Counted from the first letter of the stretch, positions 7,358 through 20,410 are shown. The stretch: 61,919 nucleotides of DNA from a virus (IMGVR_UViG_3300034025_000033:1-61919), one strand, 5' to 3'. Numbers and translations are program-made. Notes: generated by a model not told the origin, from the letters alone.

Positions 7358-7668
7358 CACTCGACTCCGCCCTTCTTCGGCAGCAGGTCGGAATAATGCG
7401 GCGCCTCGTGCGTGTTCTCGCTCAGTTCTGGCGGGATCGGGTGGCGCACGATGTCGGCCTGCGGTTTCAGGAAGCGCATGGTTTCGGCAAGCGCGCGCTG
7501 CGCCCATTCGGGCCGACCCGCCGGAACATCGCAAATTCCGCAGATCTTGTGCGCCTCATCTTCCATGGCTTTCATCATCGCCAGCACGTTTGCGGGCATC
7601 GGATTGTCTGGCGCCATCCATACCTGCCCGGCCAGCAGCTCGATGTCGTTGTCTTTTTCGTCGTTCAC
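7357..7668 (-). CDS. Hypothetical protein (103 aa, GTG start)
   Basis: GGGAGG sits 6 nt before the GTG at 7668, which overlaps the upstream stop (GTGA). The 5' part of the 230-aa ORF (7669..8049) is Arg/Ala shadow sequence. Confidence 0.55.
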   Translation of the reverse strand: MNDEKDNDIELLAGQVWMAPDNPMPANVLAMMKAMEDEAHKICGICDVPAGRPEWAQRALAETMRFLKPQADIVRHPIPPELSENTHEAPHYSDLLPKKGGVE

Positions 7669-8111
7669 TTGCTGCCTCCCTCGGTCATCTTGTCGGCGAA
7701 ATAATTGGCCCAGGCCCACCACTTTTCCTCTCGCCTCTCCATGTGCCAGGCGTTGAATTCCTTGCGCTGGTTTTGCACGCGCTGCCAGCGCACCATGAAG
7801 TCCTGCACCGGCCTGGACAGGCCGGCGAAGTCGGTTGCCGCGCCGGCTGTCCAGGCGGCCAGTTCCTGCTGCTGGCCGGGCGTCAATTCTTCCTCGGGCA
7901 GCAGCTCGGGCGGGTTCGGCGGCGGCGCGCCTTCGGCCTTGTTGCGGAACCACTTCGGCACCTCGGGCGCGTTCGTGATGAACCATTCGCGGCGCGAGAT
8001 CAGGCTGGCGCTGGCCGGCACTGCCTTGGCCTGCTGGCGCAACTCCCACACCTCGCGCGTGCCATCGCGCGGGAAGATCGGCAGGCCGCTGTTATCAATC
8101 AGGTGGCTCAT
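7665..8111 (-). CDS. Hypothetical protein (148 aa)
   Basis: ATG at 8111 (MSHLIDNSG) in ATGA overlap with the upstream gene. W-rich C-terminus. Confidence 0.65.
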   Translation of the reverse strand: MSHLIDNSGLPIFPRDGTREVWELRQQAKAVPASASLISRREWFITNAPEVPKWFRNKAEGAPPPNPPELLPEEELTPGQQQELAAWTAGAATDFAGLSRPVQDFMVRWQRVQNQRKEFNAWHMERREEKWWAWANYFADKMTEGGSK

Positions 8112-8638
8112 GCCGTCACCCGCTGGTAAATGGCCATCAGCATGTCGTCGGGCAGCTTGTCCAGCTCCATCTCGTGCCATTCGTGCCAGCCCATATCGCC
8201 CATGTAGGTCAGCCCGCGCGCCTCGTATTCCTTGGTCATCTGGTCGGGCACGCCGGTGCCGCAGATCGCATGCACCAGCATCTGGCGCGGAATATCCAGC
8301 GGCAGCGGCGCATACTTCGCGTCCGGGTCGATCGCGAACGGCTCGCCCGTCTCGCGCTTGACGATGTGCGAGACGAATTCGCCGCGGGTCGGCATGCGCG
8401 CACCGAACGGGGCACCCGGGATGCTACCGGCGGCGGCCGCGTTGGCGAAGTCGTCGAACACGGCCTTGATCTCGGCGCGGCCCGGGATCTGCCCGACCGG
8501 CATGATCGCGGTGAGCTTGCCCATCTGCTCGCCCGGCAGGCGCACATAGACCGTCACCAGCACCTCGACCGGCGCGTGCATTTCCAGGCTGGCCAGGTCG
8601 ATCTTTTCCAGGCCGTTGAATTTTTCAGGCTGCGACAT
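8108..8638 (-). CDS. Hypothetical protein (176 aa)
   Basis: ATG at 8638 (MSQPEKFNG) preceded by AAGGAAAA. Overlaps the methyltransferase 3' end by 14 nt. Confidence 0.7.
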   Translation of the reverse strand: MSQPEKFNGLEKIDLASLEMHAPVEVLVTVYVRLPGEQMGKLTAIMPVGQIPGRAEIKAVFDDFANAAAAGSIPGAPFGARMPTRGEFVSHIVKRETGEPFAIDPDAKYAPLPLDIPRQMLVHAICGTGVPDQMTKEYEARGLTYMGDMGWHEWHEMELDKLPDDMLMAIYQRVTA

Positions 8639-8651
8639 TTTGGTTTTCCTT
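8625..8651. repeat. 27-bp direct repeat, downstream copy flanking the methyltransferase gene
   Basis: Minus-sense AAGGAAAACCAAAATGTCGCAGCCTGA versus AAGGAAAACGAACATGTCGCAGCCTGA at 9412..9438 (25/27 identical). Each copy contains an SD, an ATG, the codons MSQP, and the preceding gene's TGA. Confidence 0.9.
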
Positions 8652-9425
8652 GTTGGTTGCAAATAGGTCGTCTTGCGAATAGCTGCCGGTTTCGATCGGA
8701 CCGGCCATGCGCTTCTCGGCGGTAGCAAAGTGGTCAGCGTCCGTTTCCATGCCGATGTAGTTGCGCCCGGCAATGCGCGCGGCCATGCCGATGCTGGCCG
8801 ACCCCATGAACGGGTCGAGCACCACGCCGCCTGCCGGCACCGAGTAGCGCACCAGCGGCAGGCACAGTTCGACCGGCTTTTGCGTCGGGTGCAGCGCGCC
8901 GCCGTGCTCGTTCGGGTGAAACAGCACGCTGCGCATCATGCGTGGCCCGCCGTCTTCGCTGACGTAGTGGCCGGCATCGATGTCGCCCCAATGCGCGGCG
9001 CGCGTCTTGCGACGAACCGTCTTGGCGGTGGCGTCCTGCGTGTACTGCGTTTCGCGGTACAGGTCCGCCCAGGCGCCGCGGTAGAACATGACGGCGTGTT
9101 CGTGCACGCGGCGGAACCGATCGTTGTGAAATCCGGTGCCGTTCTGCTTCTCCCACACGATGTCCTGGCTGTACTTGAAACCCAGCGCTTCCATCTGTGC
9201 AAACAGCGGCGCCAGAAAACGCATGCTGCCGAAAATCCAGATCGGTGCCGTCGGCTTGAGCACGCGCGCCACGTCCGCCAGCCAGCCGCCCACGATCACG
9301 TCCCATTCCAGCGACGTGTCGCCGTATGGCGGATCGGTAATGCAGGCATCCACGCTGGCATCGGCCATGGTGCGCAGAACGTCGCGGCAATCGCCGAAGT
9401 GCAGGGCGATATCAGGCTGCGACAT
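8625..9425 (-). CDS. DNA N6-adenine/N4-cytosine methyltransferase (beta-class, 266 aa)
   Basis: An N-terminal DPPY motif (ACITDPPYGDT) precedes the AdoMet motif VLDPFMGSASIG, the order typical of the N6_N4_Mtase family. No cognate endonuclease is adjacent. Confidence 0.9.
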   Translation of the reverse strand: MSQPDIALHFGDCRDVLRTMADASVDACITDPPYGDTSLEWDVIVGGWLADVARVLKPTAPIWIFGSMRFLAPLFAQMEALGFKYSQDIVWEKQNGTGFHNDRFRRVHEHAVMFYRGAWADLYRETQYTQDATAKTVRRKTRAAHWGDIDAGHYVSEDGGPRMMRSVLFHPNEHGGALHPTQKPVELCLPLVRYSVPAGGVVLDPFMGSASIGMAARIAGRNYIGMETDADHFATAEKRMAGPIETGSYSQDDLFATNKENQNVAA

Positions 9426-9438
9426 GTTCGTTTTCCTT
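9412..9438. repeat. 27-bp direct repeat, upstream copy flanking the methyltransferase gene
   Basis: See 8625..8651. The two copies are 787 bp apart and bracket exactly one ORF. Confidence 0.9.
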
Positions 9439-9816
9439 TGCAAAGACATTCGTTTTCATCAGCTGCTTGACCAGGTCCGGCATCGCCGACCCATAGCCCC
9501 AGTCTTCCTGCAGGTGCGCGAACGGCACCTGCTCGCCCTTGCGAATGAATTTCTCCAGCGCCTCGATCAGGGCTTGCCCCTTCTCGCCCACGCTGCAGCC
9601 GATCCAGGGGCGCGTCAGCGGCGCGAACTGCATGCCGGTCAGGTGGTCGACGAACCAGGCCTGCTCGAACTCGTCGAGGTAGAAGCGCGCCACGCGCTCG
9701 TTCGCCGGGCTGAAAAACAGCTGGCGGCCGGTGCCGGCGATCGCGGCCAGCACCGCGTTGGCCGCTTCCTCGCGCTTGGCGATGGGTTTCTTTTTTACGT
9801 TGTCCATTGTTGTCAC
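9412..9816 (-). CDS. Hypothetical protein (134 aa)
   Basis: ATGA-type coupling with the upstream gene (9813..9816). It ends ...KENEHVAA inside the direct repeat. Confidence 0.65.
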   Translation of the reverse strand: MTTMDNVKKKPIAKREEAANAVLAAIAGTGRQLFFSPANERVARFYLDEFEQAWFVDHLTGMQFAPLTRPWIGCSVGEKGQALIEALEKFIRKGEQVPFAHLQEDWGYGSAMPDLVKQLMKTNVFAKENEHVAA

Positions 9817-10067
9817 TCTCCTATTTGTAGTTGTCGATCATCGCGCACGGCCAGCACGTACACCACGCCGTCCTCGCAATCCTTCATGCCGGCACGCGCC
9901 GCCAGTTCGCTGGCCTTGTTGCATACCGCTACCCACTGGCCGCGAAACAGGCAGCCGCGACATCCGGCGCCGTGCGGCCTGGCGGTAAAATCGAGCGCCG
10001 CCGGATCCAGCGCTTCGGCATCGCGCGGGCCGCGCCAGTCGATCAGGGCGGTGTACTTTTCGCCCAT
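9813..10067 (-). CDS. Hypothetical protein (84 aa)
   Basis: Compact ORF 3 nt after the upstream stop. Several Cys residues (CRGC...C...C). Confidence 0.6.
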   Translation of the reverse strand: MGEKYTALIDWRGPRDAEALDPAALDFTARPHGAGCRGCLFRGQWVAVCNKASELAARAGMKDCEDGVVYVLAVRDDRQLQIGE

Positions 10068-10312: not shown

Positions 10313-10342
10313 TAAATAAAAGGCCGTGTTGCAAAACGGCCT
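10313..10342 (-). terminator. Intrinsic terminator after the replication module
   Basis: Minus strand AGGCCGT-tttgcaac-ACGGCCT followed by TTTTATTT, 9 nt after the stop of the 217-aa gene. Confidence 0.8.
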
Positions 10343-10350
10343 CATCATAT

Positions 10351-15950: not shown

Positions 15951-16006
15951 AACAGCCGATATGTGGCACGATGGATTCCGTAGTCAAACAAACAGGGAGC
16001 ACGACA

Positions 16007-16600
16007 ATGGATGTGAAGGACGATGCGGCGCCGAACTTGGAGTTGGAAGAGGTATGGAAAGCGATTCCCGGTCTTGAGCAGTTTTATGAAGCAAGTACGC
16101 ATGGGCGGATTCGCAGCCTTTCTCGCACTGTTCGTCAAAAGACGGGTAAGCAATATTTGCAAGCTGGCCGGGTAATGAAGCCAGCGCTGGGAATCAAGAA
16201 CAAATATTTTTCGCTTCGCCTTACCAATCAGGTAGAAACCGTAACGCGCTATGTCCACCATCTGGTGCTCATTACTTTCGTCGGGCCGGCGCCAGAAGGG
16301 ATGGAAGGTTGCCATGGCGACGGCGATAGGGCTAACAACCGGATTTCTAACCTGCGCTGGGACACTCGATCAAACAACCATGCCGATAAGGCATTGCATG
16401 GGACTGACCACAAGGGCGAACGGCATCCTGGGTCGAAATTGACTGAATCGGATGTTAAGAATCTACGAAAGCGCCGGCTAGACGGCTTGTCGTATGCCGC
16501 GCTAGCAAAAGAATTTGGCGTGACAACGATGACCGTATACAGAGCGGTTAAAGGTAAAAACTGGAGCCACGTCCCACAGGAAAATAAGGAGGCAACATGA
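16007..16600 (+). CDS. HNH homing endonuclease (NUMOD4 + HNH_3 type, 197 aa)
   Basis: EEVWKAIPGLEQFYEASTHGRIRS (NUMOD4-like), VHHLVL...CHGDGDRANNRISNLRWDT (HNH) and a C-terminal HTH. AGGGAG precedes the ATG at 16007. Lower GC than the flanks. Confidence 0.85.
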   Translation: MDVKDDAAPNLELEEVWKAIPGLEQFYEASTHGRIRSLSRTVRQKTGKQYLQAGRVMKPALGIKNKYFSLRLTNQVETVTRYVHHLVLITFVGPAPEGMEGCHGDGDRANNRISNLRWDTRSNNHADKALHGTDHKGERHPGSKLTESDVKNLRKRRLDGLSYAALAKEFGVTTMTVYRAVKGKNWSHVPQENKEAT

Positions 16601-17529
16601 AACAGCAAGAAACCCCGATCGCAGTCATCGGCAAGATTGTCTACGGTGTCGAGCGCGAGTTCAACGAAGTGCTGGTCGACCAGAGCATCAACTTCCGCCG
16701 TGAAGCCGAGTTCGCCATGCAGATCATCGAGGGCAACAGCTACATGCTGACGACCGCGATGAAGAATCAGCAGTCCGTCGTCAACGCCGTGAAGAACATC
16801 GCGGCCATCGGCATCAGCTTGAACCCGGCGAAGAAGCAGGCGTATCTCGTGCCACGCCGACCGAAGGCAGGCGCCGACACGGCCATCTGCTTGGACATCA
16901 GCTACATGGGTCTGATCGACCTGGCTGTCGAATCCGGTTCGATCCGCTGGGCGCAGGCCAAGCTGGTGCGCGAGAACGACGAATACGAAAGCCAGGGTAT
17001 CGACAAGCCGCCCGTGCACAAGTACAAGGCATTCGCCAGCGCGCTCGATCGCGGCCAGATCATCGGCGTGTATGTGGTCGTGAAGACGGTCGACGGTGAC
17101 TTCCTGACGCATGAAATGGGGCTTGAGGAAGTGCATGCGATCCGCGACCGCTCCGAGTCGTGGAAGGCTTACGTCAAGGACGAAACCAAGAAATGCCCAT
17201 GGGTGACGGACGCCGGCGAAATGATTAAGAAGACCGTCATCAAGCAGGCGGCGAAAACCTGGCCGCGCGGCTCGGGTCGGCTGGAGCAGGCGATCCACCA
17301 CCTGAACACCGACGGCGGCGAGGGATTGGTCGACATCAACGAGCCTCCAGTGCATAGCGATCCCGAACCGACAAAACTGCTGGTTGAGGCGCGTGTTGCG
17401 GCGGATGCTGGCCGTGAGCAATTTGGCGTGTTCTGGAAAGGTCTGAACGGAGCCAAGCGCACGCAACTCGGGCCTCACCTCGGCGACTTGCAGGCGCGCG
17501 CCGACAAAATCGACGGAGTGCCCAAGTAA
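16597..17529 (+). CDS. recT: RecT-family single-strand annealing recombinase (310 aa)
   Basis: [20 protein letters not shown]... and the overall RecT pattern. AAGGAGG RBS. ATGA overlap with the HNH stop. Confidence 0.9.
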
Positions 17530-18146
17530 TGCCGCGCTTTCTCGATGCACCGCAGGGTTCGGATGCTTGGTTTTCCTACAGGGCAGGCCACGCTACCGCC
17601 AGCCGTTTCGTCGACGTCATCGGCAGCAAGCAAACCCGTGAAGCCTATCTGTGGGAATTGGTGGGCGAGCGCTTGATGGGCGGTCCGCGGCGCGACGGCG
17701 GCGGACGAGCGAAGGAGTGGGGCCACCTGTCCGAACCGAAATCGCGCCTGGCGTACCAGATCCGCAGCGGCAACCTAGTACGCGAAGTCGGTTTCGCTTT
17801 GCACGACCGGATCAAGTGGCTGGGCTGCTCCAGCGACGGACTGATTGGCGAAGACGGGGCAATTGAATCAAAAAGCCCTTTTAATTCGGCCATCCATGCG
17901 CGCACGCTGGCCAAGGGCATGCCGGAAGAGCACCGGCCGCAAGTAATGGGGAATCTGCTCGTGCTGGAACGGAAGTGGATCGCGTTTTTGTCGTATGACG
18001 AGCATTTCCCGGCGCCATACGACCTGTATGACCAAGTGATCGAGCGCGATCAGAAATACATCGATTACCTGGAAGTCGAAGTAAAAAAATTCCTCGCCGA
18101 AGTGAACATCGCCGTGCGAGACATCAAAGCCACCCACAATAAATAA
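17529..18146 (+). CDS. YqaJ-type (lambda Exo-like) exonuclease (205 aa)
   Basis: GSDAWFSYRAGHATASRF... and SSDGLIGEDGAIESKSP match the YqaJ recombinase-exonuclease motifs. Coupled to recT (TAATG). Confidence 0.85.
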   Translation: MPRFLDAPQGSDAWFSYRAGHATASRFVDVIGSKQTREAYLWELVGERLMGGPRRDGGGRAKEWGHLSEPKSRLAYQIRSGNLVREVGFALHDRIKWLGCSSDGLIGEDGAIESKSPFNSAIHARTLAKGMPEEHRPQVMGNLLVLERKWIAFLSYDEHFPAPYDLYDQVIERDQKYIDYLEVEVKKFLAEVNIAVRDIKATHNK

Positions 18147-19770: not shown

Positions 19771-20375
19771 ATAACGGAGGAAATATGCAAAGCATTTTGA
19801 AAACCATGGGACCTGTGCCTTTCGCGCAACACATCGGCGAGCGCGTCTATATGCGCGAATTCACCCAGCGCGGCGGACTGCCGGAATCGCTGGTGCGCTG
19901 GCAGCCGACCGTCGATGCCATGCTGCGCGAAGTTGATGCGCCCGGCCCGATTTACCTGATGATCGACCAGAGCACGGTGCGCGCCGGCGCCAGCCACCGC
20001 CGCCCTGGCGTGCACATCGATGGCTACTGGCTGCCGTCGATACAGGCGCACGGCGATGGCCGGCACGTCGCCGGGCCGGGCGCATGGGATACGGGTAGCG
20101 GACGCTGGAAGAATGGAGCCTATGCGGATGCCGAGGCTATCATTTTGGCGTCGGATGTAGCTGCTGCGCGCGCCTTCATCGGCGAATTCGACGGCGTGCC
20201 GGGCGAGGGTGGCGACTGCCGCCACATCGACACCAAAAGCCTGATTGCGGTGCCGATGCAAGCCGGGATCGCCTACGCCGGCAATGTCACGCTACTGCAT
20301 GAATCGATGCCGGTTGCTGCTGACTGCTTGCGCACCGTCGTGCGCCTGAATGTGCCGGGCTGGACGCCGAAGTAA
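19767..20375 (+). CDS. Hypothetical protein with 2OG-Fe(II)-oxygenase-like HxD...H...R spacing (202 aa; alternative start 19785)
   Basis: The ATG at 19767 is in ATGA overlap with ninB. The ATG at 19785 sits 4 nt after GGAGG. Motifs: RRPGVHIDGYW, NVTLLHES, CLRTVVR. The fold assignment is a hypothesis. Confidence 0.65.
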   Translation: MNNGGNMQSILKTMGPVPFAQHIGERVYMREFTQRGGLPESLVRWQPTVDAMLREVDAPGPIYLMIDQSTVRAGASHRRPGVHIDGYWLPSIQAHGDGRHVAGPGAWDTGSGRWKNGAYADAEAIILASDVAAARAFIGEFDGVPGEGGDCRHIDTKSLIAVPMQAGIAYAGNVTLLHESMPVAADCLRTVVRLNVPGWTPK

Positions 20376-20410
20376 AAAAATGGGTGCGGAACCGCTACAG
20401 GACCGCACCC
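20374..20410 (-). terminator. Minus-strand-oriented intrinsic terminator inside the plus-strand operon
   Basis: Minus strand GGGTGCGG-13 nt-CCGCACCC followed by ATTTTTTTAC. No U-run follows it on the plus strand. Confidence 0.7.

Follow-up and report, generated by a model that had tools for sequence, protein, structure and literature searches.

In mycobacteriophage Island3 of Cluster I, gene 68 is an additional gene that is absent in Brujita, and its flanks of about 50 bp duplicate the 3' end of gene 67; the authors attributed this arrangement to recombination between short repeats, acting in the direction of either deletion or insertion (Pope et al. 2011; PMC3029335). In the T4-type phages, genes can be lost, gained, or exchanged when neighbouring repeats of PeSL cassettes recombine, and circles with a single copy of the repeat may be released in the process (Arbiol et al. 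2010; PMC2839356). Here we describe a comparable arrangement in IMGVR_UViG_3300034025_000033, a complete virus record of 61,919 bp with direct terminal repeats, which was analysed at its full length and is referred to as the window. On its minus strand, the gene of a predicted orphan N6-adenine DNA methyltransferase of the beta class (266 amino acids (aa); 8625..9425) lies between an upstream 131-aa gene (9412..9807) and a downstream 176-aa gene (8108..8638), neither of which has an assigned function, and a direct repeat of 27 nucleotides (nt) stands at both of its ends. We consider it likely, with a probability of roughly 0.78, that a foreign methylase gene was inserted in frame at the stop/start junction of the two resident genes, with duplication of the 27-nt unit, that the joins were made by recombination, and that the repeats are a passive scar. 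The locus is a clean example of the gain of an accessory gene by a known mechanism, ordinary phage mosaicism, and holds nothing new mechanistically.

Like gene 68 of Island3, the methylase is an extra gene for which a syntenic relative has an empty site, the 3' end of the gene ahead of it is duplicated in the direct repeat, and the inserted protein and its upstream neighbour share their C-terminal residues. The insert has a history separate from that of its flanks, its orthologues (81–82% identical) being found in other contexts. The repeat is shorter here (27 nt, perhaps 33), and since the genes overlap by 14 nt, the duplication also takes in the downstream gene's start codon and its first four codons; a further difference is that the insert has a known function, that of an orphan methyltransferase as predicted from its sequence, and orthologues that can be traced elsewhere. 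With the PeSL cassettes the locus shares short repeated expression signals that flank an optional gene. PeSLs, however, are promoter-plus-terminator units which are present in many copies per genome and are shared between phages, whereas the unit described here is a translation-initiation and stop-overlap element inside coding DNA, has two copies, and is not shared past the nearest relative. It comprises neither a promoter nor a stem-loop terminator, and no circles or deletions of the PeSL kind were seen in three assemblies of this phage. Two other types of mobile element were considered and rejected. A transposon or miniature inverted-repeat transposable element does not fit, since the insert consists of the methylase open reading frame (ORF) alone, lacks terminal inverted repeats, and is accompanied by a duplication of 27 nt rather than of 2–15 bp. 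Neither does an integron cassette, as there is no palindrome at the junctions and no integrase among the genes annotated in the region 6.9–19.5 kb, the rest of the genome being unannotated.

The repeat, AAGGAAAAC(G/C)AA(C/A)ATGTCGCAGCCTGA, is present in only two copies in the 61.9-kb genome, both of them on the minus strand. The first copy, J1 (9412..9438), reads AAGGAAAACGAACATGTCGCAGCCTGA from 9438 to 9412, and contains the Shine-Dalgarno (SD) sequence, the ATG, and the MSQP codons that now serve the methyltransferase, along with the last codons and the TGA of the 131-aa gene. The second copy, J2 (8625..8651), reads AAGGAAAACCAAAATGTCGCAGCCTGA from 8651 to 8625, shares 25 of 27 positions with J1, and forms the corresponding SD-ATG-MSQP-TGA unit for the 176-aa gene, while giving the methyltransferase its last eight codons (KENQNVAA) and its stop. 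In each copy, the SD is AAGGA with the ATG 8 nt downstream, the upstream ORF ends in the other frame with ...VAA and TGA, and the neighbouring genes overlap by 14 nt. The original prediction, which had placed repeats of this identity at both ends of the methyltransferase ORF and had read an SD, a start codon, MSQP, and an upstream stop in each of them, was correct in its coordinates and strand, and the shared starts and ends were confirmed by translation. The methyltransferase translates as MSQPDIALHFGDC...DDLFATNKENQNVAA followed by the stop, the 176-aa protein starts MSQPEKFNGL, and the 131-aa protein has the tail ...NVFAKENEHVAA, ending in FAKENEHVAA and the stop; at the two junctions, KENEHVAA of the 131-aa protein thus compares with KENQNVAA of the methyltransferase.

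The two copies are 787 bp apart (family D4 of the direct-repeat search) and represent the top short direct repeat genome-wide once low-complexity sequence is set aside. Allowing up to three mismatches, the pattern matched only J1 and J2 in the window, and it was matched in none of 100 dinucleotide-preserving shuffles of the window. The longest exact run common to J1 and J2 is 14 nt, and this core has no further exact copy in the window. At the level of RNA, J1 and J2 fold no better than shuffled sequences (z +0.6 and +1.0). The repeat could reach 33 nt, as TTTGCA is found beside both copies (9444..9439 and 8663..8658), provided that one accepts an in-frame indel of 6 nt (ACCAAC; 8657..8652); this possible 5' extension of J2 (TTTGCA plus ACCAAC; 8652..8663, minus strand) is ambiguous, however, because the residues LFA are also native to the methylase family (...DDLFA; for example, P0035 ends ...SQDDLFAITP). 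A second direct repeat of 22 nt (91% identity) was noted on the plus strand, with one copy inside the YqaJ gene (18069–18090) and the other at the stop of a 360-aa ORF (20360–20381). It was dismissed as probably due to chance, since the gene positions of the copies are not equivalent.

The flanking proteins are rare. A collection of 5.8 billion proteins yielded six homologues each of the 131-aa and 176-aa proteins, and the contigs that encode them are the relatives considered in this study; in IMG/VR and in the GTDB species genomes, neither single-protein nor alignment searches found any homologue of the flanking proteins. The 131-aa homologue directly precedes the 176-aa family in five relatives. 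In L003, the closest of them (131-aa homologue 80% identical, 176-aa homologue 68–72%), the two genes are adjacent with the same 14-nt overlap and a single junction, AAGGAAAAAGAACATGTCGCAGCCTGAAAAATTCAACGG, which is identical to J1 at 26 of 27 positions. In L005, L010, L011, and L012, the homologues are likewise adjacent, with other junction sequences and no gene in the slot; the junctions of L005 and L010 match at 16/27 and 13/27 positions, i.e., below the gene average. Position 9 of the repeat is C in both J1 and J2 and A in L003, as expected if J1 and J2 are each other's closest relatives and were duplicated within this lineage.

The 787-bp unit (8652..9438, minus strand) consists of one repeat copy and the methyltransferase body, and its removal recreates a junction of the L003 type, joining ...GAACATGTCGCAGCCTGA to AAAATTCAACGG. 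After this deletion in silico, the sequence aligns without interruption to L003 (75.5% over 1415 nt) and to L005 (73.9% over 1878 nt). The relatives without a methyltransferase that the original prediction had called for therefore exist, one of them with a single junction copy, and its proposal that recombination between the repeats would remove the gene precisely and leave a coupled junction agrees with the in-silico product, both in its junction and in its colinearity with the relatives. Regarding the suggested scar of a cassette insertion or exchange, the empty sites and the colinearity support insertion. A different gene between the same repeats was not found in the relatives, where cassette variation was seen at the neighbouring junction instead, and there was no sign of dedicated cassette machinery. 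Deletion or replacement variants, which the original prediction had also proposed to look for, were absent from all three assemblies available for this phage. Furthermore, the same repeat at unrelated junctions of relatives, named beforehand as an observation that would speak against the proposal, was not encountered; exact-pattern scans of IMG/VR, the JGI metagenomes, and the GTDB genomes gave 0 matches each.

Together, the window and the contigs L096 and L097 make up the full set of recorded contigs with a gene for the exact 131-aa protein. L096, an independent Logan assembly, is 100% identical over 10.4 kb and holds the methylase with both junctions, while L097, an ENA contig from another sample, is 99.55% identical and spans J1 into the methylase. 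All three keep the methylase, with no deletion or replacement variant among them. The repeat pair is not an assembly artefact, because the longest exact shared run of 14 nt is too short to have misled an assembler and the independent assemblies agree.

The methylase itself has a different history. It has thousands of homologues, the best of which is 82% identical, and those of alignment A1 start with M and one to three further residues ahead of ..LH.GDC and end in ...SQxxLF(xx)(AA), with zero to few residues past LF. The tail KENQNVAA was found in none of the aligned methylase homologues, and the MSQP start in only one, the more distant P0074, where it is read from GTG in an unrelated junction. 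This comparison shows that the methylase was captured in frame at both ends: its initial four codons were acquired from the 176-aa gene, and the eight at its end from the 131-aa gene. The nearest orthologues are found in other surroundings. In L093 (82%), where the methylase belongs to the head of an early operon and is flanked by a 67-aa gene and a small zinc-ribbon gene, it has its native ends, the start being ATGTCGCCTTTC and the end ...LFEVA with an ATGA overlap. That of L095 (81%), also with native ends, follows a zinc-ribbon gene of 76 aa, and that of L094 (68%) follows RusA and a 59-aa gene; all three junctions are unrelated to the 27-nt unit. The backbone proteins of L093 are 35–55% identical to those of the window, as against 82% for the methylase, while L005 and L006, whose backbones are close (DUF6475 86–88%, 107-aa protein 92%), have no methylase in the slot. 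From these discordant identities it follows that the methylase moved horizontally. Among the GenBank phages, blastn returned only weak methylase matches, the best being to Burkholderia phage vB_E332 (67%). We also observed that many methylases of the family in alignment A1, as well as the unrelated methylases of L010 (L010:300-321) and L011 (L011:1900-1923), end in ...AA and a stop, encoded by GCAGC(A/C)TGA, which overlaps the start of the following gene. Such a repeated arrangement of stop and start may make it easier for genes to be grafted in frame.

In the sequence of events that we propose, the 131-aa and 176-aa genes of the ancestor would have had an overlap of 14 nt (ATGTCGCAGCCTGA), and the SD would have been situated within the final codons of the former. 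Into this junction, an orphan N6-adenine methyltransferase gene of another phage would then have recombined, the left join falling directly behind the TGA and the right join directly ahead of the SD, so that the 27-nt initiation and overlap unit came to stand on both sides. It is the inverted order of the joins on the recipient that gives the duplication, and such an order can arise only from two recipient molecules or from two rounds of recombination in succession. The methylase would be translated from the resident SD and ATG, starting with MSQP and coupled to the 131-aa gene, and its borrowed tail, KENQNVAA with the stop, would carry the SD and the start for the 176-aa gene. The joins themselves would have resulted, probably in two steps, from recombination of phage genomes that was either illegitimate or based on short homology, and selection may have kept only the product with a working initiation region for both genes. 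Non-homologous or short-homology recombination followed by selection for intact products is the standard account of mosaic junctions (PMC3029335), and Rad52-like phage recombinases are known to be a driving force of mosaic formation where homology is short or diverged (PMC3945230). The phage possesses several genes of the recombination type, namely those for RecT, a YqaJ-type exonuclease, RusA, NinX, and a Ref-like nuclease. The RecT recombinase and the exonuclease are encoded at 16597..18143 on the plus strand (PF03837, E value 2.6e-30, and PF09588, E value 5.6e-18, respectively); this pair possibly helped, although its role at the junction is inferred. At present, the repeats would be a passive scar that could support a rare, precise loss of the methylase.

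Some observations weigh against this account. The donor was not found, the best methylase being 82% identical, which precludes a reconstruction of the exact crossover points and of any microhomology. Partial microhomologies are present in ATGTCGC, which is shared with the start of the L093 type, and in TTTGCAA near the end of the methylase, but a simple crossover at either was considered and fails to give the exact joins. In addition, the polarity of the change is not proven by the comparison of the window with L003 alone, as L003 could descend from a repeat-mediated deletion. If the insertion took place as proposed, the locus is an unusually legible record of how a gene is gained without disturbance of an operon, in which the insert borrows a ribosome binding site, a start, and a stop and hands a copy of them to the gene downstream. 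It should also make a good teaching and benchmark case for the detection of insertion scars and the annotation of start codons.

That last uncertainty has a fuller form, in which the methylase with its flanking repeats represents the earlier condition of the common lineage of the window and L003, and L003 has lost the gene by recombination between the repeats. The L003 junction agrees with J1 at both variable positions, which is what a crossover within the 14-nt identical run at the 3' end predicts. Yet four more distant relatives with other junction sequences are empty too, making the empty state ancestral by parsimony, and the duplication would still need an insertion, so that only the timing and not the mechanism would be altered; we regard this polarity as unlikely. 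It is similarly unlikely that the gene is an active excisable cassette, i.e., that RecT-type annealing at the junction copies regularly releases a methylase mini-circle with one junction copy, leaves a junction of the L003 type behind, and allows the circle to re-enter any phage that has this junction. A single crossover between a circle with one junction copy and the resident junction would indeed give exactly the observed structure, the phage encodes the RecT recombinase and the YqaJ exonuclease, and genes flanked by PeSLs do form encapsidated mini-circles (PMC2839356). The available homology, however, amounts to just 27 nt with two mismatches and no identical run longer than 14 nt, every contig that encodes the exact 131-aa protein has kept the methylase, the motif is absent from the three large collections scanned, and the orthologues of the methylase elsewhere are not flanked by it. 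The stronger version of this idea, that the duplicated unit is a working portable site which moves methylase genes from phage to phage as single-gene circles by RecT-type annealing, with mixed populations that have or lack the methylase as a result, strikes us as distinctly unlikely; if true, it would explain methyltransferase genes with duplicated junctions in unrelated phages.

The 27-nt unit might alternatively be a conserved boundary linker, present at many gene boundaries and allowing modules to be swapped by homologous recombination (Susskind-Botstein; Clark et al. 2001). A looser AAGGAAA-N5/6-ATG arrangement and the upstream tail (..LVKQLM..) do recur before the 176-aa family, whatever gene precedes it. 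A linker of this kind is nonetheless very improbable in view of its two copies in the genome, the empty pattern scans, the low conservation of the junctions of L005 and L010, and the methylase orthologues of L093, L094, and L095 with their unrelated junctions. Finally, we give almost no credence to chance similarity, to the convergence of two ribosome-binding regions, or to an assembly chimera. Both copies are translation-initiation regions, and an SD-like sequence would be common to any such pair, but no shuffled sequence matched the pattern, and the identity extends over codons 2–4 and an out-of-frame stop, which selection on the SD could not fix; as to a chimera, the 14-nt exact run is below any assembler k-mer and the independent assemblies agree.

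Based on sequence analysis, the inserted gene encodes a protein that matches Pfam PF01555 over residues 25–237 (E value 1.2e-35) as well as PHROG 67, and its best PADLOC model is the orphan methyltransferase PDLC03732 (1.7e-61). Motif IV (DPPY) precedes motif I (FxGxG). In alignment A1, D31, P32, P33, F206, and G208 are invariant, and Y34 is present in at least 90% of the sequences. The protein is accordingly predicted to be an orphan N6-adenine enzyme of the beta class. Its neighbours had no match in Pfam, NCBIfam, or PADLOC, and there is therefore no evident restriction partner. The orphan PF01555 methyltransferases of temperate phages have the same domain, motif order, and size, likewise lack a partner restriction enzyme, and have an early or nin-like location; the enzyme predicted here differs from them in that its first four and last eight residues are borrowed from the adjacent genes. 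Regarding the two resident genes, a weak precomputed match of the 131-aa protein to YoqU (PF27459) was not reproduced in profile scans. AlphaFold2 models of the 176-aa and 131-aa families were of low confidence (predicted local distance difference test scores of 63 and 62, respectively), and PDB profile searches with both families were empty.

The order of genes in the operon is helix-turn-helix protein, 84-aa, 131-aa, methyltransferase, 176-aa, and 148-aa genes, followed further downstream by RusA. Further upstream are the genes for a DUF6475 protein, an antirepressor, the Ref-like nuclease, NinX, and a protein with a LexA DNA-binding domain, and divergent from these are the HNH, RecT, and YqaJ exonuclease genes. 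With this content, the operon resembles the nin region of lambdoid phages, and the genome looks to be of a lambdoid-like type. The HNH gene, of the NUMOD4/HNH endonuclease type, directly heads the RecT and YqaJ exonuclease genes (15971–18143, plus strand). Between positions 7600 and 10300, no promoter-like or terminator-like sites were found; the sole terminator in the surroundings of this interval is at 10320–10343, ahead of the whole operon. The G+C content across the methylase is 0.60–0.69, the same as in the flanks, with no shift in composition. The methyltransferase gene does not form a transcription unit by itself. Morons, in contrast, are transcribed independently, have a promoter and a terminator of their own, and often deviate in composition (Juhala et al. 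2000; Hendrix et al.). The methylase resembles a moron in being an accessory gene placed between genes that are adjacent in related phages, and in probably benefiting the phage or the lysogen, but it has neither a promoter and terminator of its own nor an unlike composition, and is translationally fused into the resident operon.

Related phages carry three other, unrelated methylases at the neighbouring position, in the slot that follows the 84-aa gene and precedes the 131-aa or zinc-ribbon gene. The PF01555 methylase of L011 (L011:1177-1923; 248 aa, 34% identical to that of the window) is located there, one slot upstream, spliced in at the start of the 131-aa gene. In L008 and L009, the same upstream slot holds a 590-aa PF01555 methylase (L008:4027-5799), and in L010 a partial Dam-like ORF with an NPPF motif (L010:1-321) precedes the 131-aa gene, its match to PF05869 (3.3e-4) being below the cut-off. 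The methylase ORF of L011 begins ATGACAACAATG (L011:1163-1200), and it took over the stop-to-start spacer TGACAACAATG together with the 131-aa start codon (cf. 9819..9805 of the window). This was accomplished without duplication of the junction, since the 3' end of this methylase itself supplies a new SD and an ATGA overlap. The neighbourhood of the 84-aa, 131-aa, and 176-aa genes is an insertion hot-spot, in which four different methyltransferases have landed. The hot-spot indicates that DNA modification has been selected for strongly and repeatedly, presumably as a protection from restriction by the host.

In L004, L006, L007, and L008, a gene for a 71–75-aa zinc-ribbon protein (CxxC) replaces the 131-aa gene. 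The last ~50 nt (about 17 codons) before the 176-aa gene, which encode ..PxLVKQLM.., are homologous at the nucleotide level between the 131-aa and zinc-ribbon families. The homologous ..PLVKQLM.. tail is located at 9445–9480 in the window (minus strand), at L004:3200-3271, and at L093:4920-4968, and in L093 the zinc-ribbon family keeps it in a different context. This distribution of the tail suggests that the 131-aa family was itself grafted in frame, at an earlier time, onto the tail of a zinc-ribbon gene at the same junction. The 84-aa gene is replaced in L003, where the position ahead of the 131-aa gene is taken by a gene for a 229-aa protein (L003:2497-3186) with a weak match to the sliding-clamp domain DNA_pol3_beta_2.

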